64,000 nucleotides of DNA from contig JBDTLT010000011.1 of assembly GCA_039934635.1 (NCBI GenBank), positions 5,118-69,117 on the forward strand. Direction: 5' to 3'. Made by a program: the position numbers and the translations under genes. The first letter of the stretch is position 1; each line of letters opens with the position of its first letter. Positions 367 to 39,741 of this stretch are shown piece after piece. The notes under the pieces are model-generated. The model was given only the letters and a program-made list of their open reading frames with translations, did no database searches and had not been told where the DNA came from. The stretch comes from Acidimicrobiales bacterium (GTDB lineage Bacteria; Actinomycetota; Acidimicrobiia; Acidimicrobiales; WLNW01).

Positions 367-1212
367 ATGCGCGGAGATGATCTGACCGGCAAGGTCGCGT
401 TGGTGGCCGGGGCCGTGCGCAAGCCGGGCATCGGGCGAGCGACGATCCTTCGCCTGGCAGAGATGGGCGCCGCGGTGGTGTGTGCCGACTCCGTCGCGGA
501 CGAGGCCGAGATCGATCCGCGCGGTGACACGATCAAGGTCAGCGCGAGCGACCTGCGCGCGGTCGTCGCCGAGGTCGAAGCGGCCGGCGGGCGCGCGGTC
601 GCGGTCAACCTCGATCAATCCGATCGTGAGTCGATCGACAACGCGGTGCGCCGCGCGGTGATGGAGTACGGGCGCCTCGACATCTTGTGTCATCTCGGCG
701 GCGGCACGTCGCCCGAACGTGACCGGCCGATCATGGAGCTCACGCCCGATGCATGGGATGACACCGTGGCGCTGATCCTCACGTCGGTGTTCCTCCTCAA
801 CCGTGCGGCGGCGAAGCAGATGATCACGCAGGGCGACGGCGGGGCCATCGTCAACCTGGGTTCGTTTGCCGGCGTGCGCCTGGCCGACGGTCCGCCGGCA
901 TTCTCGGCGCTCAAGGCCGGGGCCGAGGCGTTCACCAAGATGCTGGCCCGCGAACTTGCCCCGCACCGGATTCGCGTCAACATGGTGCATCCGCTCGGCG
1001 TCGATGCCGGCGATGGCGTCAAGAACCCGGGGCTGGCCCGCGCCGCGGAAAAGGCCGGGCGCTCGGTCGAGCAGTGGATGCGCGACATGATCCCGTTCGG
1101 GCGCTTCCAGGCGGCCGACGAGACCGCCGCAGTCGTGGCGTTCTTGTGCTCCGATGCCGCGTCGTTCACCTCGGGCCAGGCGATCTCCGTCGCCGGCGGG
1201 GCGACGCCCTAA
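367..1212 (+). CDS. SDR family NAD(P)-dependent oxidoreductase
   Basis: N-terminal GKVALVAGA..PGIG Rossmann motif, GRLDIL, IVNLGS, F-x3-K in place of YxxxK, IRVNMVHP, C-terminal FTSGQAISVAGG. Confidence 0.9.
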   Translation: MRGDDLTGKVALVAGAVRKPGIGRATILRLAEMGAAVVCADSVADEAEIDPRGDTIKVSASDLRAVVAEVEAAGGRAVAVNLDQSDRESIDNAVRRAVMEYGRLDILCHLGGGTSPERDRPIMELTPDAWDDTVALILTSVFLLNRAAAKQMITQGDGGAIVNLGSFAGVRLADGPPAFSALKAGAEAFTKMLARELAPHRIRVNMVHPLGVDAGDGVKNPGLARAAEKAGRSVEQWMRDMIPFGRFQAADETAAVVAFLCSDAASFTSGQAISVAGGATP

Positions 1213-1278
1213 CCCCCAGGTAACCGGTGGCGACCATTTTCCGAGCGCTGTCGAATGTTGCGGTTCCTTCAACGTATC

Positions 1279-1307
1279 TTGACAGTTGTGTTACGAACCG
1301 CTAGAAA
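1279..1307 (+). promoter_or_regulatory. Candidate sigma70-type promoter (TTGACA-17 nt-TAGAAA)
   Basis: Perfect -35 TTGACA at 1279-1284, 17-nt spacer, TAGAAA at 1302-1307, upstream of the 1340 ORF. Confidence 0.4.
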
Positions 1308-1339
1308 ATCCTTCCGTGCTACGCGATCGAGGTCCAAAG

Positions 1340-1654
1340 ATGCGACCATTTGACCCGCGCTCGTCCCTTCGGGAACCGGTGAGCCCGGCCGACATCGATG
1401 CCGCCATCGAGCAGTGGGACGTCGAACTCGCCCTCGAGATGGCGTTCCTCGCCACCGAGCGCGTCTCCGTCGCCCGTCGCATCGTGGGGTTCTTCGCCGC
1501 GCTGCTGGCATTCGTGGCCGGTGTCGCCGGCACGATCTGGGCGTTCCACAACGTCGGCCTCGGTTTGGCCTTGCTCAGCGCGTACTCGCTGCCGTTGTTC
1601 GTCCTACTGGTGATGCTCGGCGTCGAGCGCACGGTGCCACTCGGTAAGAACTGA
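1340..1654 (+). CDS. Small hypothetical membrane protein (2 TM)
   Basis: ORF 1286..1654; ATG 1340 preferred. Two hydrophobic stretches (IVGFFAALLAFVAGVAGTIWAF; VGLGLALLSAYSLPLFVLLVMLGV). Confidence 0.6.
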   Translation: MRPFDPRSSLREPVSPADIDAAIEQWDVELALEMAFLATERVSVARRIVGFFAALLAFVAGVAGTIWAFHNVGLGLALLSAYSLPLFVLLVMLGVERTVPLGKN

Positions 1655-1734
1655 GGCCCGAGCGGCCTGCAGATCGGAAACCCCAGCGGGCACGCTGCTT
1701 CGACACAACCCGCACTGCGAGCGAGACTGCGGCG

Positions 1735-2913
1735 ATGCGCATCGGTTACAGCGATGACAGTGAAGCGTTGCGGCAGACGCTGCGTTCGTATTACGACGAG
1801 TTGCTGAAACCCGAGGTCCGCGAACGACTCTCGCATTCGGAGGGCATCGGCCCCGACATGCGGGCGGTCGTGCGCCAGATGGGCCGCGACGGGTGGTTGG
1901 GCATCGGCTGGCCGCCCGAGTACGGCGGCCAGGGTCGCACGCCGATCGAACAGTTCGTCTTCTTCGACGAGTCGATGCGGGCGCAAGCGCCCGTGCCCAT
2001 GCTGACCGTCAACACGGTCGGCCCGACGATCATGCACTTCGGCACCGCCGCCCAAAAAGAGTTCTTCCTGCCCAAGATCGTCGCCGGCGAGATTCACTTC
2101 TGCATCGGCTACTCAGAGCCCGGCGCCGGTACCGATCTCGCGGCCTTGCAGACACGCGCGGTCAGGGATGGCGACGAGTACATCATCAACGGACAGAAGA
2201 TCTGGACGAGCTTGGCCTCCGATGCCGACTACTGCTGGCTGGCGGTGCGCACCAACGCCGAAGCCAAGAAGCACAAGGGCATCTCGATGATCATCGTCGA
2301 CATGAAGAACACGGACGGCATCACCGTTCGGCCCCTCGACCTGCTGCCGGGGCACAACGTATGCGAGGTCTTCTTCGACGATGTGCGCGTGCCGGTCGCG
2401 AATCGCGTCGGTGAGGAAAACGGCGGCTGGAATCTCATCACCAACCAGCTCAACCACGAGCGGGTCACGCTGTGCTCGCCGGGCATGATCGAGAATCACC
2501 TCGACGAGGTCAAGGCCTGGGCCAAAGCGACGGTCGGTGCGGACGGTCGCCGTGTGATCGACGACGAATGGGTACGCATCGCGTTGGCCCGGCTCTACGC
2601 GCGCCTCGAGTTCTTGCGGCTCATCAACTGGAAGGTTGCCTACAACGCGACGCAGAACACGCTGCATCCGGCCGACGCGTCGGCCACGAAGACGTTCGGC
2701 ACCGAGTTCTATCTCGAGGCCATGCGGTCCTTGATGGAGATCGTCGGTCAGGCGTCGTATCTGACTGCAGGCACCGCCGGCTCGGTGTTGCATTCACGAC
2801 TCGAGGCCGCGTACCGCGGCCTGTTGATCTTGACATTCGGAGGCGGCACCAACGAACTGCAACGTGATTTGATCGCGATGTTCGGCTTGGGCATGCCGCG
2901 GTCCGATCGATGA
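1735..2913 (+). CDS. Acyl-CoA dehydrogenase, FadE26/FadE29-like catalytic (alpha) subunit
   Basis: GWLGIGWPPEYGGQG, FCIGYSEPGAGTDLA, INGQKIWTS, catalytic-type LNHER, C-terminal TFGGGTNELQR. Confidence 0.92.
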   Translation: MRIGYSDDSEALRQTLRSYYDELLKPEVRERLSHSEGIGPDMRAVVRQMGRDGWLGIGWPPEYGGQGRTPIEQFVFFDESMRAQAPVPMLTVNTVGPTIMHFGTAAQKEFFLPKIVAGEIHFCIGYSEPGAGTDLAALQTRAVRDGDEYIINGQKIWTSLASDADYCWLAVRTNAEAKKHKGISMIIVDMKNTDGITVRPLDLLPGHNVCEVFFDDVRVPVANRVGEENGGWNLITNQLNHERVTLCSPGMIENHLDEVKAWAKATVGADGRRVIDDEWVRIALARLYARLEFLRLINWKVAYNATQNTLHPADASATKTFGTEFYLEAMRSLMEIVGQASYLTAGTAGSVLHSRLEAAYRGLLILTFGGGTNELQRDLIAMFGLGMPRSDR

Positions 2914-2923
2914 GGGGACATTG

Positions 2924-4027
2924 ATGGATTTCTCACTGAGCGAAGAACAAGAGACCACGCGTTCGCTGGCGCGCCAGATCCTCTCCGATCTCGTCACGCC
3001 CGAGCGCCACAAGGAACTCGAAGCCGACGGCCAATGGTTCGATCGCAAGGCGTGGTCTGCACTGGCCGACGCCGGGCTGCTCGGCATCGCGGCACCCGAA
3101 GCGCATGGCGGCTCGGCACTCGGGTTCCTCGAGGTCGCGCTCGTGCTCGAAGAAGTCGGGCGCACGGTCGCCAAAGTGCCCTATCTCGCATCCGTGGTGA
3201 TGGGCATTTTGCCGATCGCCCGCTTCGGTGACGCGACGGTGCAGGGCCAGTGGCTTCCGCGGCTCGTCTCGGGTGAGGCCATCGCCACGACCGCGCTGGT
3301 CGAAGAGCGCGCATCCGCCCGGTCGCCGGCCACGTCCGCCCGCAAGAAGGGCTCTGCTTGGGTGCTCGACGGCACGAAGACGTGCGTCCCGGCGGGCCTC
3401 GACGCCTCGATCGTGTTGGTGCCCGCGATGACGGGCAACCGCCGGGTCGGCGTGTTCGTCGTCGAGACCGACGGGCCCGGCGTCGAGATCGAGCGCCAGG
3501 ACACCACGACCGGCATTCCCGAAGCGCGGGTCGTGCTCGCGGGCGCCAAGGCGACATTGCTCGGCGACACCGTCGCGGGTGCAGAGATCGTCGATTGGAT
3601 CACGCTGCGGGCGACTGCGGCGCTGGCCGCCACCGCGGTCGGTGTCTGCGAAGCCGCCCTGCGCATCACCGCGGAGTACACGAAGACGCGCGAGCAGTTC
3701 GGCCGCCCGATCGCCACGTTCCAAGCAGTCGGCCAACGCGCCGCCGACGCCTACATCGACACCGAGGCGGTGCGGCTCACCGCGCTGCAGGCCGCGTGGC
3801 GCATCTCCGCCGATCTCCCGGCCGAGGCCGAGGTGGCCATCGCCAAGTTCTGGGCGGCGGACGGCGGGCAGCGCGTCGTGCACGCGGCGCAACACCTGCA
3901 CGGGGGCATGGGTGTCGACCGGGACTATCCCGTTCACCGCTATTTCCTGTGGGCCAAGCATCTCGAACTCTCGCTCGGCGGCGCCACCGAACAGCTTCTG
4001 CGCTTGGGCGACATCTTGGCCGGGTAA
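2924..4027 (+). CDS. Acyl-CoA dehydrogenase, FadE27/FadE28-like partner (beta) subunit
   Basis: MDFSLSEEQ start, REQFGRPIATFQAV, AQHLHGGMG..RDYPVHRYF. Adjacent to the alpha subunit, as in alpha2beta2 steroid ACADs. Confidence 0.9.
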   Translation: MDFSLSEEQETTRSLARQILSDLVTPERHKELEADGQWFDRKAWSALADAGLLGIAAPEAHGGSALGFLEVALVLEEVGRTVAKVPYLASVVMGILPIARFGDATVQGQWLPRLVSGEAIATTALVEERASARSPATSARKKGSAWVLDGTKTCVPAGLDASIVLVPAMTGNRRVGVFVVETDGPGVEIERQDTTTGIPEARVVLAGAKATLLGDTVAGAEIVDWITLRATAALAATAVGVCEAALRITAEYTKTREQFGRPIATFQAVGQRAADAYIDTEAVRLTALQAAWRISADLPAEAEVAIAKFWAADGGQRVVHAAQHLHGGMGVDRDYPVHRYFLWAKHLELSLGGATEQLLRLGDILAG

Positions 4028-11789: not shown

Positions 11790-11817
11790 GGCCCGAAGTC
11801 TAGGCAAATCCGAGGGC

Positions 11818-11843
11818 ATTTGCACTATGCCGGTAGTGGTAAT
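11818..11843. promoter_or_regulatory. Best copy of the suf operator-like palindrome, over the predicted -35 of sufC2-sufS-sufU
   Basis: ATTTGCACTAT-GCCG-GTAGTGGTAAT; the minus-strand -10 TAGACT is at 11797-11802. Confidence 0.65.
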
Positions 11844-11872
11844 TGCGGTGTCGAGCGGGCGCGTCGCCGGCC

Positions 11873-12313
11873 TCAAACCGAGGCGAGCAGGTCTTGCTTC
11901 CACGCCCGGAATCGCTCGTGGTGACTGCCGCTAGGCCCCTCACCTTCGGCGGATCCGTCGGCATGCAGACGGAACAAGAACTGGCGCGTGAGGTCCTCGC
12001 GGTCCACCGCGAAATAGCGGGCGTCGGCCTCGACTGCAGGCCCAGCGCGCCAGAGCAACCAGCGGCCGATGCGGCGCTTGTACATCGCGACTTGGAACTG
12101 CGGGTCGCTGTGGCCGAGGTCGTCGCCCAATGTGAGTAGGGCGGCGGGCGCTTCGATCCATGCCGTCGCGGGGATGTTGCGGTCGCGAGTGGGGGTGTCG
12201 GGGAGGTCGGCCGTATGCCGCAACGTGTTGTCGATGGGGCGTTCGTCGTAGCGCAAGGCTCGTTCCACCCGGCCAGTCTGCCGCGCGATGAGTGGAGTAC
12301 ATCTCGGCGTCAT
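11873..12313 (-). CDS. Hypothetical protein
   Basis: Open frame filling the gap, globular-looking C-terminus (YKRRIGRWLLWRAGP...HERFRAWKQDL). Start uncertain. Confidence 0.6.
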   Translation of the reverse strand: MTPRCTPLIARQTGRVERALRYDERPIDNTLRHTADLPDTPTRDRNIPATAWIEAPAALLTLGDDLGHSDPQFQVAMYKRRIGRWLLWRAGPAVEADARYFAVDREDLTRQFLFRLHADGSAEGEGPSGSHHERFRAWKQDLLASV

Positions 12314-12381
12314 AGTAGAAAGTGCCAGCAGAGACGAGCGCACGCCGGCGTGGTTCCGGTGACGCAAGGAGCCCGACACGC

Positions 12382-13497
12382 ATGAATTTCGCGTTCAGCG
12401 AAGAACAAGAAGAGCTTCGGCGCATCACGCGCCAGTTCCTCGACGACAAGTCGGACGAACAGGCAGTGCGCGCATTGATGGCGACCGAGAAGGGTTTCGA
12501 CGACGCCGTCTGGCGGCAGATGGCCGATCAGATGGGCCTGCAGGGCCTCATCGTCCCCGAGGACTGCGGGGGCTCGGGCTACTCCTACGTCGAATTGATC
12601 GTCGTGCTCGAAGAGATGGGCCGGTCGTTGCTGTGCGCCCCCTACTTCTCGACCGTGGTGCTCGCGGCCAACTCGTTGATCCACAGCGGCGACGACGCGG
12701 CGAAGAAACAACACCTGCCGGGCATCGCGTCGGGCGAGACGATTGCGACGCTCGCGTTCACCGAGGACAACGGCCGGTGGGACGAGTCGGGCATCACGAT
12801 GGTCGCCACGGCGGCCGGTGACGGGTGGACGCTCAACGGCCACAAGATGTACGTGCTCGACGGCCACGTCGCGAACCTCATCATCGTCGCGGCACGCACC
12901 GGTAAGGGTGTCTCGTTGTTCACCGTCGATGCCGATGCCGCCGGACTGTCGCGCACTGCGTTGCAGACGATGGACCAGACCCGCAAGCAAGCCCGGCTCG
13001 AGTTCGACAACACACCGGCCAAGCTGCTCGGCGCGGATGGCGACGGTTGGAAAGTGCTCGAGCGAGTGCTCGATCTCGCGGCAGTTGCGCTGGCGGCCGA
13101 ACAGGTCGGTGGCGCGCAGAAGTGCCTCGACATGAGTGTCGAATACGCCAAGGTGCGCGTGCAGTTCGGTCGCCCGATCGGGAGCTTCCAGGCCATCAAG
13201 CACAAGTGCGCCGACATGCTGCTCGAGGTCGAGTCGGCCAAGTCCGCCGCGTACTACGCCGGCTGGTGTGCGTCCGAGCTCAACGACGAATTGCCGTCGG
13301 TGGCTTCGCTCGCCAAGGCCTATTGCTCCGAGGCCTACTTCCATGCGTCTGCCGAAAACATCCAGATTCATGGTGGTATCGGGTTCACCTGGGAGCACCC
13401 CGCGCACCTCTACTTCAAGCGGGCCAAGTCGTCAGAGCTGTTGTTCGGTGACCCGACGTATCACCGCGAGCTCCTCGCGCAGCGCATCGGTATCTAA
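12382..13497 (+). CDS. Acyl-CoA dehydrogenase, beta-subunit type (FadE27/IpdE2/FadE18-like)
   Basis: MNFAFSEEQEELR, RVQFGRPIGSFQAIKHKCADM, QIHGGIGFTWEHPAHLYFKRA; SD aagga upstream. Confidence 0.92.
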   Translation: MNFAFSEEQEELRRITRQFLDDKSDEQAVRALMATEKGFDDAVWRQMADQMGLQGLIVPEDCGGSGYSYVELIVVLEEMGRSLLCAPYFSTVVLAANSLIHSGDDAAKKQHLPGIASGETIATLAFTEDNGRWDESGITMVATAAGDGWTLNGHKMYVLDGHVANLIIVAARTGKGVSLFTVDADAAGLSRTALQTMDQTRKQARLEFDNTPAKLLGADGDGWKVLERVLDLAAVALAAEQVGGAQKCLDMSVEYAKVRVQFGRPIGSFQAIKHKCADMLLEVESAKSAAYYAGWCASELNDELPSVASLAKAYCSEAYFHASAENIQIHGGIGFTWEHPAHLYFKRAKSSELLFGDPTYHRELLAQRIGI

Positions 13498-13518
13498 CTT
13501 GGCGCAGCGGACGCGACG

Positions 13519-13974
13519 ATGACGATCGTCTTCGTCGTCATCGCCATCGTGATCGTGTTTGCGATCGCGGCGGCCACCGTCGGTACGGTCGTCGCCCGGC
13601 TCGCCGACGCGCCCCGGCCGACGGTGCTGAAGGTCGACGAATCGGTGGCGTGGATCGCCGAACGACTGCCGTTCGAGATCGCGGCCGAGGTCTCTTACGA
13701 GGACGTGCGCCGCATCCTCGACTGGCATCTCGACTACTTCGCCGATGTGGGCCTCGTGACCGACCACGGCCAGGAACTCGGTGGCGCCGCGGTCCCCGTG
13801 GGGCATGCCCCGGTCATCGGCTCGACCGAAGAATCGATCGATTACGTCGTGTCCCGGGCACTTGCTGCCGACTCGGAGATCACATCACTCCACGTCGTCG
13901 TGGTGCTCGACAAGCAGATGGAGTACTGGCAAGAAATTGGCGTTATCGGACCTCCCGCCGAGCCCGACGCATGA
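13519..13974 (+). CDS. Hypothetical protein with N-terminal membrane anchor
   Basis: Hydrophobic first 25 aa followed by an acidic soluble domain. Confidence 0.75.
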   Translation: MTIVFVVIAIVIVFAIAAATVGTVVARLADAPRPTVLKVDESVAWIAERLPFEIAAEVSYEDVRRILDWHLDYFADVGLVTDHGQELGGAAVPVGHAPVIGSTEESIDYVVSRALAADSEITSLHVVVVLDKQMEYWQEIGVIGPPAEPDA

Positions 13975-13989
13975 CACAATATTGGCACC

Positions 13990-14200
13990 AAGAGAGAGGA
14001 GGTGGTCCAAATCAGTAGTAGCAGTTCATTTGGGACCTTGGAGGTGGCTGGCCGCTAGTCGGCCGCTGGTCCAGCTGGCGAATCCCTGCCAGACCACCGC
14101 TATCGAAACCCGTCGAGTCCTGTCCCGCTCGGCACTGAAGGCGTTTCGATGGTTCACCAGAAATCCGAATTGCCGCGGGGGAGGGTTTACCCTCCCCCGT
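13990..14200 (+). ncRNA. Candidate structured RNA / micropeptide leader with two strong SD-like motifs
   Basis: AGGAGGTGG (13997-14005) and GGAGGTGG (14040-14047), plus a series of hairpins (14004-14037, 14050-14064, about 14067-14097, about 14103-14150, 14176-14199). No long ORF. Confidence 0.4.
14176..14199. other. Perfect 11-bp inverted repeat (hairpin/operator) 10 nt before the 14210 ORF
   Basis: cgggggagggt-tt-accctcccccg. Confidence 0.7.
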
Positions 14201-14209
14201 GTGCACGTT

Positions 14210-14419
14210 ATGGGAAGGAAATACGTGGTGGATCGACCGATCCGGTACGAACACAACCGCTTCCTCGGCGACAAGCGCCGCCAGTTCGTCTACGACCTCG
14301 ACGACGTGACCGAACGAGCCGTGATCGACGAACTCGTCGCGTCCGAGCAAGTCGCCACGTTCGGCCCCGACACCCTCTCCGAAGCGCGCAACCGCGGCTA
14401 CCGCCTGCGCCGAGCCTGA
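14210..14419 (+). CDS. Small hypothetical protein (69 aa)
   Basis: MGRKYVVDRPIRYEHNRFLGDKRRQFVYDLD...EARNRGYRLRRA, with strong GC3 bias. Confidence 0.7.
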   Translation: MGRKYVVDRPIRYEHNRFLGDKRRQFVYDLDDVTERAVIDELVASEQVATFGPDTLSEARNRGYRLRRA

Positions 14420-14426
14420 GGCGCGG

Positions 14427-15191
14427 ATGGCGGTGGCAACGGTCGACGTCGGCGGGCTGCGGCTCGCCGCGCACGTCGCTCGTCCCACCGGCGGCCCCCG
14501 CACCGGGCTGCCGGGTGTCGTTCTCGTACCCGGCTACCCGTCGGGCGCCGATCGGGGGGCGTCGGCGCCGGCGACGCATCCCGCGCTGGCCGACCGCATC
14601 GCCCAAGAGATGGGTTGGGTCGCACTGGCCCTCAATCCCCGCGGTACCAGCGGATCGCAGGGCAACTTCTCGCTCGACGGCTGGTTCGACGACGTGTTGG
14701 CGGCGGCCGAGCACCTCAACCGCACGGAGCGGGCCAACGGAGTGTGGCTCGCCGGGTTCGGTACCGGCGGCGCGATCAGCATCTGTGCCGGCGCCCGCGA
14801 CCTCCGAGTACGCGGCGTTGCGGCGCTGGGTGCGCCGGCCGATTTCGATGACTGGGCGCGGCACCCCAAGCGCCTCGTCGAGCACTCCCGGCTCGTCGGC
14901 ATCATCCGCGATGCGGACTTTCCGCCGTCGATCGACGAGTGGGCGGTCGGATTGCGCGAGCTGCGCGCCGCCGAGCACGCGGGTGAGCTCGCCCCCCGCG
15001 CGTTGTTGCTCGTGCACGGCAGCGAGGACCAGCTCGTGCCCGAGGCCGACGCCCGGACGATCGCCGAGGCCCACGGCACCGCCGATCTGCGGATCATCCG
15101 GGGCGCCGGTCACAACCTGCGCCAGGATCCACGGGCCATGGCCGTGTTGCTCGGTTGGCTCGACCGGCAGCGGCGGAGGGTTCCCTTCTAG
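14427..15191 (+). CDS. Alpha/beta hydrolase fold protein
   Basis: NPRGTSGSQG, nucleophile-elbow-like AGFGTGG (no canonical Ser), LLVHGSEDQLV, GAGHNL. Confidence 0.8.
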   Translation: MAVATVDVGGLRLAAHVARPTGGPRTGLPGVVLVPGYPSGADRGASAPATHPALADRIAQEMGWVALALNPRGTSGSQGNFSLDGWFDDVLAAAEHLNRTERANGVWLAGFGTGGAISICAGARDLRVRGVAALGAPADFDDWARHPKRLVEHSRLVGIIRDADFPPSIDEWAVGLRELRAAEHAGELAPRALLLVHGSEDQLVPEADARTIAEAHGTADLRIIRGAGHNLRQDPRAMAVLLGWLDRQRRRVPF

Positions 15192-15289
15192 CCCTCAACG
15201 ATGGGCGGAACTGGTCGCTCGCCTCATGCCCCGGCCGGGGCCACGCGGCATCATTGAGGTGACTTCAAACGCCGTAAGGGTCCTGGATC

Positions 15290-16111
15290 GTGACAGCACA
15301 GCCGACTACTCTCGGTGGATTACGTAGAGCGGCAGTGAACTTGCAACAGGACACCAGGCATTACACCGACCGGGCAAGGGAGGAGAGCGACGTGCCAGAG
15401 GCTTCTACGGCCGACGGGGTCGTATCGGTTCGCCGTGATCTGAACCCTGTTGCTGCGGTGGTCAACGGCGTTGCGCCGAGCTCGTCGGCCGATACCAACA
15501 TCGTTCGCTATGTCGGTGCCTACGATCGATTCTTCAAGCGCTGCATCGACCTCGTCGGTTCGGGCATCGCCCTCGTGATCCTGTTACCGGTCATCGCCGG
15601 TGTCGCTCTTGCGGTGCGCTTGATGCTCGGCCCCAACATCTTCTTTTGCCAAGAGCGCGTCGGTCGCAACGGCAAGACCTTCCGCATGATCAAGTTCCGT
15701 TCGATGCAGCACGACCGCCGCTCCGACAGCGCGGATTTCACGGGCAGCGATCGCCGGCAAACGCACAAAAGCCTCAACGATCCGCGCCACACTCCGGTGG
15801 GCCGCTTCATTCGCAAGTGGAGCCTCGACGAGTTGCCGCAGTTGTTCAATGTCCTCAAAGGCGACATGAGCCTCGTCGGCCCGCGGCCAGAGTTGGTGCG
15901 TGTCGCACAGGCCCACAATCTCATCGGGCATCCCCGCCATCTCGTGCGCCCAGGTATCACCGGCCTGTGGCAGGTCTCGCGTGAACGCAGTTCGTTGTTG
16001 CATGAGAACGTGCACATCGACACCGAGTACGTCACGCACGTGACCTTCCTCGGTGATGTAAAGATCTTGCTACGCACAGTGGGCGCAGTACTGCACGCAC
16101 GCGGACGCTGA
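15290..16111 (+). CDS. Sugar transferase (undecaprenyl-phosphate glycosyl-1-phosphate transferase family)
   Basis: KRCIDL, one TM, QERVG.NGK.F.MIKFRSM, GRFIRKWSLDELPQLFNVLKGDMSLVGPRP, RPGITGLWQV. True start probably downstream of 15290. Confidence 0.92.
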   Translation: MTAQPTTLGGLRRAAVNLQQDTRHYTDRAREESDVPEASTADGVVSVRRDLNPVAAVVNGVAPSSSADTNIVRYVGAYDRFFKRCIDLVGSGIALVILLPVIAGVALAVRLMLGPNIFFCQERVGRNGKTFRMIKFRSMQHDRRSDSADFTGSDRRQTHKSLNDPRHTPVGRFIRKWSLDELPQLFNVLKGDMSLVGPRPELVRVAQAHNLIGHPRHLVRPGITGLWQVSRERSSLLHENVHIDTEYVTHVTFLGDVKILLRTVGAVLHARGR

Positions 16112-34737: not shown

Positions 34738-35553
34738 ATGGCTGTCGAAGAAGATCTGCTGTACCGCATCGAAAATGGTGTTGCCTGGCTGACGATGAAT
34801 CGTCCGCAGGTCGGCAACGCGATGACGCCCGAGGTCCGCGATCGCATGCGCGACATCATCAACGACCTCAACGTCAGCTACGAAGCGCGCGCGATCGTCA
34901 TCACCGCGACGGGCGAAAAGATGTTCTGCCCTGGCGCCGACATCTCCACTGATCGCGCGGTGGTCCGGCCCCAAGGCGCGCCCGAACGCATCGTCGGACA
35001 GAACCGGCGCATGATGCTCAACGGCCAACTGCAACTGATGCCGGCGATCATCAATTCCGAGTTGCCCATCATCGCTGCGGTCAATGGCACGGCCGCCGGC
35101 GTGGGCGCGCACCTGGCGCTCGTGTGCGATCTCGTGATCATGGCCGACAACGCCAAGTTCATCGAGGTGTTCGCCCGCCGCGGTCTGATTCCCGATGGTC
35201 TCGGCACATGGATCCTGCCGCGGTTGATCGGTCTGCAGAAGGCCAAAGAGCTCTGCTTCTTTGCGGACGACGTGCCCGCGCAACGAGCCCTCGAGATCGG
35301 CCTGTGCAACAAGGTCGTGCCCAAGGCGGAATTGCAGTCGACGGCGCGCGAGTGGGCCGAACGGCTCGCCGGTGGCCCTACACGGGCGTACATGCTGATG
35401 AAGTGGTTGCTCAATCGCAGCCTCGACGTCGACATGCGCACCATCATGGAAGAAGAAGCATGGGCGGTCGAGGCCGTGACCCAGACCCAGGACATGACCG
35501 AAGGCGTGGCCAGCTTCCGGGAGAAGCGCCCGCCGCAGTGGACCGGCTTCTGA
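34738..35553 (+). CDS. Enoyl-CoA hydratase/isomerase family protein
   Basis: FCPGADI, IIAAVNGTAAGVG..LALVCD, F..RGLIPDG, EGVASFREKRPP. Confidence 0.92.
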   Translation: MAVEEDLLYRIENGVAWLTMNRPQVGNAMTPEVRDRMRDIINDLNVSYEARAIVITATGEKMFCPGADISTDRAVVRPQGAPERIVGQNRRMMLNGQLQLMPAIINSELPIIAAVNGTAAGVGAHLALVCDLVIMADNAKFIEVFARRGLIPDGLGTWILPRLIGLQKAKELCFFADDVPAQRALEIGLCNKVVPKAELQSTAREWAERLAGGPTRAYMLMKWLLNRSLDVDMRTIMEEEAWAVEAVTQTQDMTEGVASFREKRPPQWTGF

Positions 35554-35599
35554 CCCGGAAGTCGCTCATGAGAGGCCTCTGCAGGCCGATATAGCGGGG

Positions 35600-36496
35600 A
35601 TGGTGTTCGCACTGCTTCTGCGACAGGCGTCCGGCGCGGAGCCCACCGAGACTGCGTTCGATCGGATGCCGACCTGGGGCAAGTACGGCATCCTCGCGCT
35701 CCTGTTGTTGTTCGCCGTCGCGATGATCGAGACGGTCCGCCGCCATGGCTTGCGGGACCGCGAGGTGAAGCTGGCCGCGCTCAGCGCCGGCTTTCAGTAC
35801 AACCAGACTGATCCAGCCGGTGTCGGCGAACTGCGCTTTGCTGCATTCGGTCGCGGCAAGGGTACGCGCATCAGCAACGTGGTGAGCGGCAAGTCGCATA
35901 CCGGTGCCGTCGTGCGCGCGTTCGACTTCTCGAGCTACATGGAACACGCCGTGTCCGAGAGTCAGCGCGAGTCGGAGTTCGTCGACTACCTGTGGGGCAT
36001 GGACGGCTGGGGCGAGAGCAGCGGATATTCCAGCAACAAAATGAGGACTTACTCGAAGGCACGATCCGGGGCGGTCGTCAAGCTCGACGCCTTCCTGCCG
36101 TCGATGGTGGTTGCTCCGTCGAATCTGATCACGCGTGCGTTCGAGATGGTGGGTGCGGAGGACATCGACTTCGAATCCGAAGAGTTCAACCGTGGCTACG
36201 ACGTGCGCTGCTCGGACAAGCGGTTTGCGTCGTTGTTCCTCGACGCGCAGATGATCGACTTCATCCTCGGCTTCGACCGTCACTTCGCCTTCGAGACGTT
36301 CGGTAACTACGTGCTGTGTCACGCCAAGATGTGTGAACCTCGTCAACTGCCGGCGCTCGCGGCGAAGATGGGCGAACTGCTGCCGTTGGTCAACCAACTG
36401 GTCTACGACGAGTATCCGACCGTGGCCGGCGTCGAGTACCGCGACGCGATCAGCGATTGGAACCATCGCCCGGGCGGAGCTCGCGGCTACTACTGA
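35600..36496 (+). CDS. Hypothetical membrane-anchored protein (DUF3137-like)
   Basis: One TM near the N-terminus; D.DFESEEFN..Y.V...D..FA....D motif. Confidence 0.7.
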   Translation: MVFALLLRQASGAEPTETAFDRMPTWGKYGILALLLLFAVAMIETVRRHGLRDREVKLAALSAGFQYNQTDPAGVGELRFAAFGRGKGTRISNVVSGKSHTGAVVRAFDFSSYMEHAVSESQRESEFVDYLWGMDGWGESSGYSSNKMRTYSKARSGAVVKLDAFLPSMVVAPSNLITRAFEMVGAEDIDFESEEFNRGYDVRCSDKRFASLFLDAQMIDFILGFDRHFAFETFGNYVLCHAKMCEPRQLPALAAKMGELLPLVNQLVYDEYPTVAGVEYRDAISDWNHRPGGARGYY

Positions 36497-36810
36497 GGCA
36501 CGGGCCGGTGCAGCACTGCCTTGGTCGGCGTCATCCGCAACTGCGAACCTTCGACGGCGGCGTCGGCATCGACGATGAGGCTGAAGCCGTCGGCTTCGTG
36601 AGGGGGCCAGAGCACGGCGATCTGTGCGCGTGTGGCCGCGTTCTCGGCGCTGCGCCGGCCGACCGTGCACGTCAGCACGCCGCCGTCGTGCGTGACAACC
36701 ACGTGGCTGATGTGGGGGCGCCCGTCGTCGCTGGTGGTGAGTACGAAGGCACTGGCGCCGAAGCGCGCCATCTCGTCGCCCAGGTGATCGAGCGCGACGG
36801 CGATGCTCAT
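36490..36810 (-). CDS. Pyridoxamine 5'-phosphate oxidase-like (split barrel) protein
   Basis: FVLTTSDDGRPHISHV, SAENA......LWPP....FSLIVD. Confidence 0.75.
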   Translation of the reverse strand: MSIAVALDHLGDEMARFGASAFVLTTSDDGRPHISHVVVTHDGGVLTCTVGRRSAENAATRAQIAVLWPPHEADGFSLIVDADAAVEGSQLRMTPTKAVLHRPVPQ

Positions 36811-37439
36811 CGGGGCGCCGCGGCCTTGCGAGCAATGCCGATGTAGTGGGCGACGAATGGCTTGGGACCCTTGCCGTACTCGCGGTCGAGTCGTTCGATC
36901 TCGAAACCCGCGTCCGTCAGTTCGCGGTCATGCGCCCGAGTGAGTTGGCAGCCGCCGAAGACGCGACTGCTGATGGGTTGGATGCGATGCTGCCACTTGT
37001 TCACGTTGTCGTCGGGCGACAGGCCGTGTTCCACGAAATGCAGCGCGCCACCCGGTTTGAGCACGCGGTGCACTTCGCGCAGCGCGCGCCCTTCGTCGGG
37101 GATCGTGCACAGCGTGAAACTCGAGACGGCGTTGTCGACCGATTCGTCGGCGAGTGGAATGTCCTCACCGTCGAGGCCGATGAACTCCACCGGGATTTCG
37201 GATCGACCGATGCGGTCGGCCGCCAGCTTGCGCCCGATGGTCGCCGGATCGACCGCGTAGACCTTGGTGACCGCGGGTGGATAGAGCGGCACATTGAGCC
37301 CCGAGCCGAAACCGATCTCGAGTACTACGCCGCTGATGCCCTCGAGCGACTGGCGCCGCAGCGCGCGGATGTCGTCGTTGTCCATCACCTTGTCGATCAG
37401 CCGAGGCAGGACCTGGTCGCCGTAGACACCCACGGGCAT
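36807..37439 (-). CDS. Class I SAM-dependent methyltransferase (PmtA-like)
   Basis: VLEIGFGSGLN, AVDP, FTLCTIPD...AL.E..RVLKPGG..HF.EHG. Confidence 0.9.
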   Translation of the reverse strand: MPVGVYGDQVLPRLIDKVMDNDDIRALRRQSLEGISGVVLEIGFGSGLNVPLYPPAVTKVYAVDPATIGRKLAADRIGRSEIPVEFIGLDGEDIPLADESVDNAVSSFTLCTIPDEGRALREVHRVLKPGGALHFVEHGLSPDDNVNKWQHRIQPISSRVFGGCQLTRAHDRELTDAGFEIERLDREYGKGPKPFVAHYIGIARKAAAPR

Positions 37440-37505: not shown

Positions 37506-39365
37506 ATGTACGTGCGGGTGGATCTGGGCTCGGGCGCCGTCGCACTGGCCGAGCCCGACAACTTCAAGCAGTTCCACGTGACGGCGAGCGGGCCTGGCCT
37601 CGACGACGATGTCGCGGACGCGCTCGGTGACGGTGGGCGCCGGTGTGACGAGCCGAGCCACGTCTACGTCGCGATCGAACTCGTGCGACGGCTCGCGGCC
37701 CCCCAAATGGGTGACGAGTGGGAGGCGGGATTCGACAAGATGCTGGGTTTCGCCCAGAAGATGGGTTGGATCGACCCGAGCGGCGAGTTCATCAAGGCGC
37801 ACACCGAGTGGCCGCTGTGCGACGGCCGCAACCTCTGGGAGTTGATCGAGGCGCGGGTCGCGGCCACGCCCGATATCGAGATGGCGTGCGACGAATCGGG
37901 CAATCGCCTGACGTTTCGGCAATTCGAGGACCGGGCCGAACGCATGGCGGCGGGCCTCATGACGATGGGCATCGCCGCGAACGACGTCGTCTCGTGGGAG
38001 CTGCCCAGTTGGATCGAGTCGATGGTGTTGAGCGCGGCCATCAATCGGCTCGACGCGGTGCAGAACCCGATCATCGCGATCTACCGGGAACGCGAGGTCG
38101 CGTTCTGCACGAAGCAGGCCGGCGCCAAGCTGTTGATCGTGCCCGGCGTCTGGCGCGGCTACGACTACACGGCGATGGCCAACGCTGTCGCGGCGGCCAA
38201 CGACGGTCTCGAAGTCCTCACGGTCGAGCGGGGCGCGTTTCCCGATGGTGATCCGACGACATTGCCGCCGCCCCCACGGCCGTTGGCGTCGGGCGAACTG
38301 CCGATGCGCTGGTTGATGTACACGTCCGGTACGACCAGCGATCCCAAGGGCGCGCGGCACACCGATGCCGCCAATGCGATCGTGGCTCGCACGACCGGTC
38401 AGCGCTTCGATGTCCGTCACGGTGACCGGCCCTCGCTCGTGTTTCCGTTCCCGCACATCGGCGGCATCATGTGGATGGTGCTGTCGTTGCAGTTCGGGGC
38501 AACTCTGCTGTTCGAAGAAGCCTTCGACGCCAATCGCACGCCGCGGTATCTCTCGCGCGAGGGGTGCACGCATCCGGGGTCGGGCACGCCGTTCCATGTG
38601 GCGTATCTCAACGTGCAGCGCGAGCAGCCCGACGTGCCGTTGTTCCCGCGGGCGAAGTGTTTTCCGGGAGGCGGTGCACCCAAGCCGCCGCAACTGACCT
38701 ACGAGGTCAAGGACGAGTTGGGCGCAGTGGTCGTGTCGGGCTGGGGTCTCACCGAGGTCCCGATCCTCACGATGGCGTCGACCAAGGATTCGCTCGAACG
38801 GCTCGCGCAGACCGAAGGTTTCGTCATGCCGGGTGTCGAATTGATCGTCGTCAAGCTCGACGGCACACGGGCTGCCCCTGGCGAAGAGGGCGAACTGCGC
38901 GCGAAGGCACCACAGATGATGTTGGGCTATCTCGACGAGCGCCTCGACGCGGAGGCGTTCGACGAAGAGGGCTACTTCCGCACCGGCGACCTGGGCACGC
39001 TCGATGCCGACGGCTACGTGGTCATCACGGGCCGGTCCAAGGACGTCATCATCCGCAACGCGGAGAACATCTCGGCCAAAGAGGTCGAAGATGTGCTCTA
39101 CACGCACCCCAAGGTGCACGACGTCGCCGTCATCGGATTGTCCGATGCGAAGACGGGCGAACGCGTGTGCGCGGTGGTGTCGAGCACCGACGTCCAGGAT
39201 CCGTTGACCTTTGCCGCCATGCGCGATTTCCTGATCCAGCACGGCTTGCGCAAGCAGGCGATTCCCGAGCAGTTGGAGCTGGTCGACGTCATTCCCCGCA
39301 ATGCGGCGGGCAAGATAACCAAGAACGTGCTGCGCGACCGATTCAATGGTGCAGATCGACAATGA
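37506..39365 (+). CDS. AMP-binding acyl-CoA ligase (cyclohexanecarboxylate-CoA ligase-like) fused to an N-terminal ~100-aa uncharacterised domain
   Basis: ATG 37506; N-domain ending WEAGFDKMLGFAQKMGW...IKAHTEW runs in frame into LWELIEARV..TPD; YTSGTTSDPKG, GWGLTE, YFRTGDLG, RNAAGKI.K. Confidence 0.85.
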   Translation: MYVRVDLGSGAVALAEPDNFKQFHVTASGPGLDDDVADALGDGGRRCDEPSHVYVAIELVRRLAAPQMGDEWEAGFDKMLGFAQKMGWIDPSGEFIKAHTEWPLCDGRNLWELIEARVAATPDIEMACDESGNRLTFRQFEDRAERMAAGLMTMGIAANDVVSWELPSWIESMVLSAAINRLDAVQNPIIAIYREREVAFCTKQAGAKLLIVPGVWRGYDYTAMANAVAAANDGLEVLTVERGAFPDGDPTTLPPPPRPLASGELPMRWLMYTSGTTSDPKGARHTDAANAIVARTTGQRFDVRHGDRPSLVFPFPHIGGIMWMVLSLQFGATLLFEEAFDANRTPRYLSREGCTHPGSGTPFHVAYLNVQREQPDVPLFPRAKCFPGGGAPKPPQLTYEVKDELGAVVVSGWGLTEVPILTMASTKDSLERLAQTEGFVMPGVELIVVKLDGTRAAPGEEGELRAKAPQMMLGYLDERLDAEAFDEEGYFRTGDLGTLDADGYVVITGRSKDVIIRNAENISAKEVEDVLYTHPKVHDVAVIGLSDAKTGERVCAVVSSTDVQDPLTFAAMRDFLIQHGLRKQAIPEQLELVDVIPRNAAGKITKNVLRDRFNGADRQ

Positions 39366-39378
39366 GGAGAAGGCGACA

Positions 39379-39741
39379 ATGGCGAAAGTGACCATCTACC
39401 ACAACGGCAATTGAAACTCGTCCAATAGCGCCTTGGCGGTCGCCAAGGATCTGGGTGTCGATGCCGAGATCGTGCAATACCTCAAGACTCCACCCGACAA
39501 AGCGACGCTCGAAAAGATCATCGGCATGCTCGAAGATCCCGTGGAGGACCTCGTCCGCAAGGATGCCAAATTCGAAAAGCTGGGCCTCGACCCCGCCACG
39601 TTCGTGGGCAAGCCGAAGGCGGTCGTCGACATCTTGTTGAAGCACAAAGAACTGATGCAACGACCGGTCATCGTCAAAGGCAACAAGGCGATCATCGGCC
39701 GACCGAAGGACAAGGCCGCAAAGTTCCTCGAGGCCAAATAG
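39379..39741 (+). CDS. arsC: ArsC-family arsenate reductase with in-frame TGA at catalytic Cys12 (probable selenoprotein, UxxS)
   Basis: SD gaggag, then ATG 39379: MAKVTIYHNGN-TGA(39412-39414)-NSSNSAL...LVRKD...LMQRPVIV...IIGRP. His8, Ser15, Arg60, Arg95 and Arg108 line up with R773 ArsC H8/C12/S15/R60/R94/R107. Confidence 0.9.
39412..39448 (+). other. UGA-Sec codon plus bacterial SECIS-like hairpin
   Basis: CCTTGGC-GGTC-GCCAAGG (39431-39448); apical loop starts 23 nt after the UGA; the GGUC loop resembles the E. coli fdhF SECIS apical loop. Confidence 0.8.

Follow-up and report, generated by a model that had tools for sequence, protein, structure and literature searches.

A selenoprotein family of 'arsenate reductases' (COG1393) was introduced in 2005 by Zhang, Fomenko and Gladyshev from the Sargasso Sea metagenome, with 14 sequences that carried a UXXS motif and a predicted SECIS element, and with widespread Cys homologues (PMC1088965). 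In the GOS analysis of 2008, Zhang and Gladyshev held this UxxS family apart from the UxxC 'Arsenate reductase 2' (PMC2398784). Reviews of 2022 and 2026 have retained it in the selenoprotein catalogue as COG1393 / TIGR00014, UxxS (PMC9312934, PMC13188914), the latter adding that the biological functions of such predicted selenoproteins are untested (PMC13188914). The metagenomic reports of Sec-containing ArsC-like (UxxS) proteins, on which the initial annotation of the present locus had relied, are well documented (PMC1088965, PMC2398784).

The window analysed here is a stretch of 64,000 nucleotides from an Acidimicrobiales metagenome bin (G000; 6.56 Mb in 496 contigs, 96.5% complete, 4.7% contamination), located on contig C11. 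Within it lies a gene which very probably encodes an intact 120-residue selenoprotein of the ArsC family, whose UGA codon 12 would be decoded as selenocysteine by means of a SECIS, and for which an ArsC-type chemistry is predicted (Table 1). The gene belongs to the catalogued UxxS 'Arsenate reductase' family and, judging from its motif and from family models, would fall in the same sub-clade as the published sequences. It is a valid correction of the annotation and one of modest novelty, the family being already known from metagenomes since 2005.

Table 1. Position of the gene, its signals and its neighbours in the window.
Feature	Start	End	Strand	Details
AMP-dependent synthetase/ligase, upstream	36846	39365	+	PF00501, PF13193; maximal ORF
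Shine-Dalgarno-like GAGGAG	39364	39369	+	Spacing to ATG 9 nt; direct reading
ArsC-family selenoprotein CDS (predicted), 120 residues	39379	39741	+	ATG 39379–39381, TAG 39739–39741
UGA, predicted selenocysteine codon 12	39412	39414	+	U-x-x-S with S15; position of R773 ArsC Cys12
Putative SECIS hairpin	39431	39448	+	CCUUGGC 39431–39437, loop GGUC 39438–39441, GCCAAGG 39442–39448
TTG (Leu19)	39433	39435	+	Within hairpin 5' arm; start codon chosen by gene callers
Rieske [2Fe-2S] ring-hydroxylating oxygenase alpha subunit, downstream	39756	41096	+	PF00355, PF00848

Direct reading of the locus agreed with the gene structure first proposed, namely an ATG start preceded by GAGGAG and a frame that is intact except at codon 12. 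The GAGGAG overlaps the TGA stop of the upstream AMP-ligase gene (39363–39365), the frame is open to the TAG, and the TGA at codon 12 is the single in-frame stop. The protein begins with MAKVTIYHNGN-U-NSSNSALAVAKDLG... and its motif reads U12-N-S-S15. The mechanical ORF list, for which ATG, GTG and TTG are start codons and CTG and TTA are not, begins the gene at the TTG and gives a 102 aa product, which lacks the active site as had been noticed.

For comparison, DNA was fetched for the best 80 relatives among GTDB species representatives, giving 81 sequences with the window. The stop of the AMP-ligase gene precedes the ArsC ATG by 13 nt, and this gene is a neighbour in 8 of the 81 loci, as well as in L114, a locus with a Cys form of the gene. 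The Rieske oxygenase gene starts 14 nt past the ArsC stop and is a neighbour in 6 of the 81, and also in the Cys-form loci L114 and L115. The true start of the ligase is probably later than that of the maximal ORF. In contigs of two sequencing runs of the source community (X1 and X3), a 6-nt insertion (CGAGTG / CGAGCG) behind window position 39350 adds two codons near the ligase C-terminus, which represents strain-level variation in that community. Upstream of the ligase, a 463-aa ORF (35444–36835, minus strand) has neither a Pfam match nor a counterpart beside the gene in relatives, and may be a spurious high-G+C ORF.

Family scoring was done with Cys substituted at the TGA. The 120-residue protein matched Pfam ArsC (PF03960) with an E-value of 3.9e-12 and 46.7 bits, for a cut-off of 24. 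Its top NCBIfam match was TIGR00014, the glutaredoxin-type arsenate reductase, with 93.8 bits, under the curated equivalog cut-off of 106.05; the Spx/MgsR model TIGR01617 gave 40.8 bits, under its cut-off of 75.05. The CxxC redox switch of Spx/MgsR is absent, the motif being the UxxS of ArsC-family selenoproteins. The best PDB matches were glutaredoxin-type arsenate reductases; the fold of this type of ArsC is thioredoxin-like. Alignment by phmmer to R773 ArsC (1I9D/1JZW, E 9e-14) placed U12 on the catalytic Cys12, where the initial annotation had put it, and likewise confirmed the rest of the catalytic set that it had listed: H8, S15, R60, R95 (R94 in R773) and R108 (R107 in R773). The three arginines are invariant across the family alignment. 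Thus the pfam03960/COG1393 fold, a UGA within U-x-x-S, a SECIS and Cys homologues, which characterize the catalogued 'ArsC 1' family, were each found for this gene.

Arsenate reduction, the function originally assigned, is supported by family and catalytic residues but not by gene context. The gene does not lie in an ars cluster, and neither arsB, acr3, arsR nor arsM was found beside it in any of the 81 loci. The family shows no conserved neighbourhood: the most frequent cluster of neighbours accounts for 13 of the 81 loci. Neighbours vary by lineage (SerB-like phosphatase, GcvT/GcvP, enoyl-CoA hydratase, inositol-monophosphatase family) and are, in the close relatives of the window, the AMP-ligase and the Rieske oxygenase, 13–14 nt from the gene. 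A separate canonical ars cluster, unlinked to the Sec-ArsC, was found on C84 at about 11800–15700 (locus L118). It comprises a MIP-family channel, an LMW-PTP-type ArsC with an N-terminal phosphatase-like domain, Acr3 (425.5 bits), a glyoxalase-family gene and ArsR. Because the gene was never found in an ars operon, arsenate as its physiological substrate is uncertain.

It is quite possible, if on the whole doubtful, that the gene encodes a genuine selenoprotein which is not an arsenate reductase, and whose ArsC fold and Sec/Arg pocket serve a different, housekeeping redox reaction. The substrate could then be another oxyanion, a low-molecular-weight thiol adduct or a protein. The lack of the four arsenic genes at 81 loci with variable neighbours, the presence of the genome's arsenic genes (MIP channel, LMW-PTP ArsC, Acr3, ArsR) on C84, the TIGR00014 score under the equivalog cut-off, and the remark of the 2026 review on functions all lean this way, whereas the residues of the R773 arsenate site (H8, C/U12, S15, R60, R94, R107) do not vary across the family, glutaredoxin-type arsenate reductases are the top matches in both NCBIfam and the PDB, and stand-alone arsC genes occur. 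A wider proposal, which we make tentatively and consider rather unlikely, is that the whole widespread Sec-ArsC clade (Acidimicrobiia, Verrucomicrobiota, Pirellulaceae) represents a housekeeping selenol-dependent reductase with a non-arsenic substrate, standing apart from the ars operon and crossing phyla together with its SECIS.

The stem CCTTGGC/GCCAAGG with a GGUC loop, described from the sequence at the outset, was indeed present: it is a perfect stem of 7 bp, its first base follows a 16 nt spacer from the UGA, and it codes for A-L-A-V-A-K. As a single sequence, it folded only mildly better than shuffles (z = −2.3). Across the 81 sequences, the GGTC loop and the closing pairs are invariant (81/81), and 98.4% of stem cells are in standard pairs. 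Changes on both sides were seen in three of the seven stem pairs (UA to CG or GC, GC to AU, CG to UA), with a covariation score that was reached by 0 of 500 shuffles. As a control, the 3' arm was slid by 1–3 columns, and pairing was then 28–69%. Within the hairpin, four-fold codons are fixed or nearly so (GCG 100%, GTC 100%, GCC 95%), and in the flank codons all four synonyms are in use, the major one at about 40–50%. Changes that preserve the stem even bring amino-acid substitutions with them (Glu/Lys to Gly or Thr), and the constraint therefore acts on the RNA. Judged from this alignment, comparative support for the candidate hairpin is far beyond chance.

A lower SECIS helix was considered and rejected: the MFE structure pairs the UGA region with downstream sequence, yet the flanks vary freely in the alignment. 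An Rfam search of 39300–39600 gave no family match to the hairpin, its sole hit being a meaningless miRNA (E 0.23), and Rfam holds no model by which the hairpin could be scored.

A search of the genome for the Sec-decoding genes, as had been advised, revealed selA (394.7 bits) adjoining selB (271.2 bits) on C67, and selD (370.4 bits) on C23, all above curated cut-offs. Pfam confirmed SelA, as well as the C-terminal winged-helix domain of SelB (SelB-wing_3), which is its SECIS-binding part. A second selenoprotein gene, encoding a formate dehydrogenase alpha subunit (FdhA) of 703 aa, was found on C9 (48810–50081, minus strand; 880–2991, minus strand, in locus L108), with one in-frame TGA in the canonical site 'DSCNRT-U-HAPSVVG'. 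Inspection by eye showed, 12 nt past this UGA, a stem GUCGUC/GGCGGC capped by a GGUCU loop; the computed fold did not contain that stem. Another ORF ends directly upstream of FdhA on the same strand (L108, 1–879). The selA, selB, selD, fdhA and ArsC genes are linked only by binning and by similar G+C content (65.1–66.5% for C11, C67, C23 and C9, versus a bin mean of 65.5 ± 1.1%).

No tRNA-Sec was found by ARAGORN in the window, in the whole genome (43 tRNAs) or around selA, selB and selD, nor with RF01852 on the genome, where the best hit (43.7 bits) was a tRNA-Ser. Both genomes of the same genus possess a tRNA-Sec of 67.8 bits (L105, 1501–1596; L106, 1497–1592). Its place is the same in both, about 310 nt past the stretch matching the first base of C67, and in L106 the flank on its far side matches the extreme end of C187. 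Since the start of C67 and the end of C187 flank the tRNA-Sec of the same genus, that of the present organism would fall between these contigs, in a gap of some 1.4 kb. Its presence in the organism, at the C187/C67 gap, is predicted from synteny only. In one of the two genomes (G001), the DNA next to the tRNA-Sec (L105, 1777–2663) matches C178, C346, C168, C236 and C425 at 80–86% identity; it may be a multi-copy element or repeat, perhaps an insertion sequence, at which assemblies break off. The source runs contain tRNA-Sec-like contigs of about 93% likeness at the organism's depth, and a contig of run X3 (record 17) spans the tRNA-Sec into the selC flank of the same genus. That these contigs belong to the organism is only suggestive, as the metagenome ties are not firm. 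Of the initial proposal that this organism decodes Sec, selA, selB, selD and the Sec-type FdhA stand as support, whereas the tRNA-Sec is absent from the assembly and is placed in its gap by synteny.

Sec decoding had been presumed uncommon among Actinomycetota, which does not apply to this order, as a tRNA-Sec was detected in 12 of 20 same-order relatives. On this count, Sec decoding appears to be common in the Acidimicrobiales rather than rare. A strong TGA-form ArsC was found in eight relatives, and all eight have a tRNA-Sec above the Rfam cut-off. The eight genomes devoid of tRNA-Sec have no TGA-form ArsC, save one weak TGA match of 31% identity (one-sided Fisher test by our own arithmetic, p = 0.004 for 8/12 versus 0/8, and 0.025 with the weak match counted). 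This match (G007, C754, 3568–3903, minus strand) is an ArsC-family sequence with one TGA, in a genome that is 81% complete and in which no tRNA-Sec was found.

One might suppose that the UGA is read through without Sec, by a near-cognate Trp or Cys tRNA or under a reassigned code, and that the hairpin merely slows termination. The assembly without tRNA-Sec would fit such a scheme, but TGA is an ordinary stop here, the upstream ligase ending in TGA, and relatives with the TGA form have tRNA-Sec as well. Moreover, the invariant GGUC loop is also found at the apex of the SECIS of E. coli fdhF, and a full selA/selB/selD set is present with a Sec-type FdhA, so that read-through of this kind is very improbable.

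Cys relatives of the gene offered a natural control. Full-length proteins of 119–122 aa with Cys at residue 12 were found, such as P0002 ('HNTNCGSS', 87% identity), P0003–P0005, P0067 and others. Cys-form DNA was available for four metagenomic loci, L114–L117, all of which have TGC at codon 12. In L114, the AMP-ligase precedes the gene and the Rieske oxygenase follows it; the L115 sequence starts with the gene itself, and the Rieske oxygenase is its only visible neighbour. Because they share the neighbours of the window, L114 and L115 are true orthologues. In L114, L115 and L116 the loop is changed to GAUU or GAUA and the stem contains mismatches, and in L117 the hairpin sequence is lost altogether. 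The Cys/Sec alternation at residue 12, which had been named as a check, is thus seen together with decay or loss of the hairpin. The protein tree indicated repeated Sec/Cys switches within the subclade of the window.

In the same tree, 25 sequences from Verrucomicrobiota (in the range L020–L095) and one from Pirellulaceae are nested within the diversity of Acidimicrobiia (support 96/91), and their SECIS is almost identical to that of Acidimicrobiia. This suggests a transfer of the gene across phyla together with its SECIS, with mis-assignment of bins as the alternative.

The TGA itself was found at the homologous codon in all of the 80 best relatives, each from another species, hence in 81/81 sequences with the window. 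These relatives belong to three phyla, with Acidimicrobiia, many Verrucomicrobiota (Akkermansiaceae, Roseibacillus) and one Pirellulaceae. In the 11 codons before the TGA, the amino acids (V-T-I-Y-H) are kept while third positions drift freely among the 81 sequences, and these codons are therefore translated in the frame of the TGA. An assembly error hiding a TGC or TGT had been named as a possible refutation; Logan contigs from X1, X3 and X4, three distinct runs within a single study, covered the TGA with 0 differing letters. Close relatives keep both the TGA and a covarying hairpin, and Cys is what alternates with it at residue 12. The comparative evidence argues that the TGA of codon 12 is a true selenocysteine codon.

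Gene callers, and NCBI for the relatives, annotate the gene otherwise, as if the functional product were the 102-aa protein from the TTG, the upstream part being untranslated or an 11-codon leader peptide. In the protein search, about 60 near relatives were called at exactly 102 aa, two of which are NCBI records from Acidimicrobiales bins named 'ArsC/Spx/MgsR family protein', so that the mis-annotation by pipelines which had been predicted did occur. However, such a form is devoid of the entire active-site loop (H8, C12, S15), the 11 upstream codons are kept as amino acids and in every case share the reading frame of the TGA and of what follows it, and the Cys orthologues are continuous 120-aa proteins. 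Furthermore, the TTG lies inside the stem, and the codon is CTG or TTA in 16 of the 81 sequences. A functional 102-aa product is for these reasons most unlikely. That the gene is a nonsense pseudogene, or that codon 12 reflects a mistake of sequencing or assembly, which is how pipelines by default treat a lone in-frame stop in an intact gene, has a negligible probability in view of the 81/81 TGA codons from three phyla, the contigs of three runs and the purifying selection on the remaining frame. Taken together, the conservation of the TGA, the contigs and the constraint on the upstream codons rule out, for practical purposes, a pseudogene, an assembly error and a functional product of 102 aa.

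SelB-mediated insertion of Sec at a SECIS within the coding region is, at the level of sequence comparison, well supported, and would proceed as follows. The UGA of codon 12 would escape termination, the hairpin 16 nt downstream acting as a bacterial SECIS. The C-terminal winged-helix domain of SelB would bind the GGUC-type loop and bring in Sec-tRNA(Sec), made by SelA with selenophosphate from SelD. Selenocysteine would in this way be placed at the catalytic Cys12 position. In the folded protein, R60, R95 and R108 would make up an anion pocket, accompanied by H8 and S15, in which the U12 selenolate lies. This selenolate would attack an oxyanion, arsenate by homology to R773 ArsC, to give a covalent Se-As(V) adduct, which by the same homology a thiol partner would then resolve. 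Since the full R773 anion site is present, a Se-As(V) intermediate followed by thiol resolution is the natural model.

For annotation, the consequence is that this gene and hundreds of database relatives are recorded as 102-aa 'ArsC/Spx/MgsR family' proteins minus their active site; the 102-aa records would be complete selenoenzymes wrongly truncated at the N-terminus. To the known family, the locus adds a pair of Sec and Cys orthologues of which the Cys one shows a decayed SECIS, repeated switches between Sec and Cys, and separation from the ars operon. The syntenic orthologues (87% identity), one with Sec and a SECIS and the other with Cys and a decayed hairpin, constitute a clean natural experiment, useful as a benchmark for selenoprotein predictors and for testing the benefit of Sec to ArsC chemistry. 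With no ars genes around it and a separate ars cluster in the genome, the gene puts in question the physiological substrate of a family predicted 20 years ago.

Among known systems, the closest is the 'Arsenate reductase' or 'ArsC 1' selenoprotein family (COG1393, pfam03960, TIGR00014), with which the gene shares the Pfam family, Sec for Cys in UxxS, a downstream SECIS hairpin with an apical G, and abundant Cys homologues. Members of that family are known only from uncultured bacteria. Those described came from ocean metagenomes, whereas the present gene is from a soil or rhizosphere Acidimicrobiales bin, and nothing essential is different.

With R773 ArsC from the E. coli plasmid (PDB 1I9D, 1JZW), the protein has in common the fold family and H8, the Cys12 position, S15, R60, R94 and R107. 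In contrast to R773 ArsC, it has Sec for Cys12, its C-terminus is about 20 residues shorter, its gene lies outside any arsRBC-type operon, and its TIGR00014 score is below the cut-off. 'Arsenate reductase 2' or 'Arsenate reductase-like protein' (cd03032, NF041106; UxxC) and Spx/MgsR share the PF03960 superfamily with it, and in the UxxC selenoproteins Sec also occupies the first redox position. These groups however have a UxxC/CxxC pair, whereas the protein described here has UxxS and the three ArsC arginines.

Finally, the hairpin resembles the SECIS of E. coli fdhF in being part of the coding sequence and in following the UGA closely. The fdhF loop begins 18 nt after the UGA, that of the present gene 23 nt after it, within the usual bacterial range, and the stem of 7 bp is perfect, without the bulged U of fdhF.
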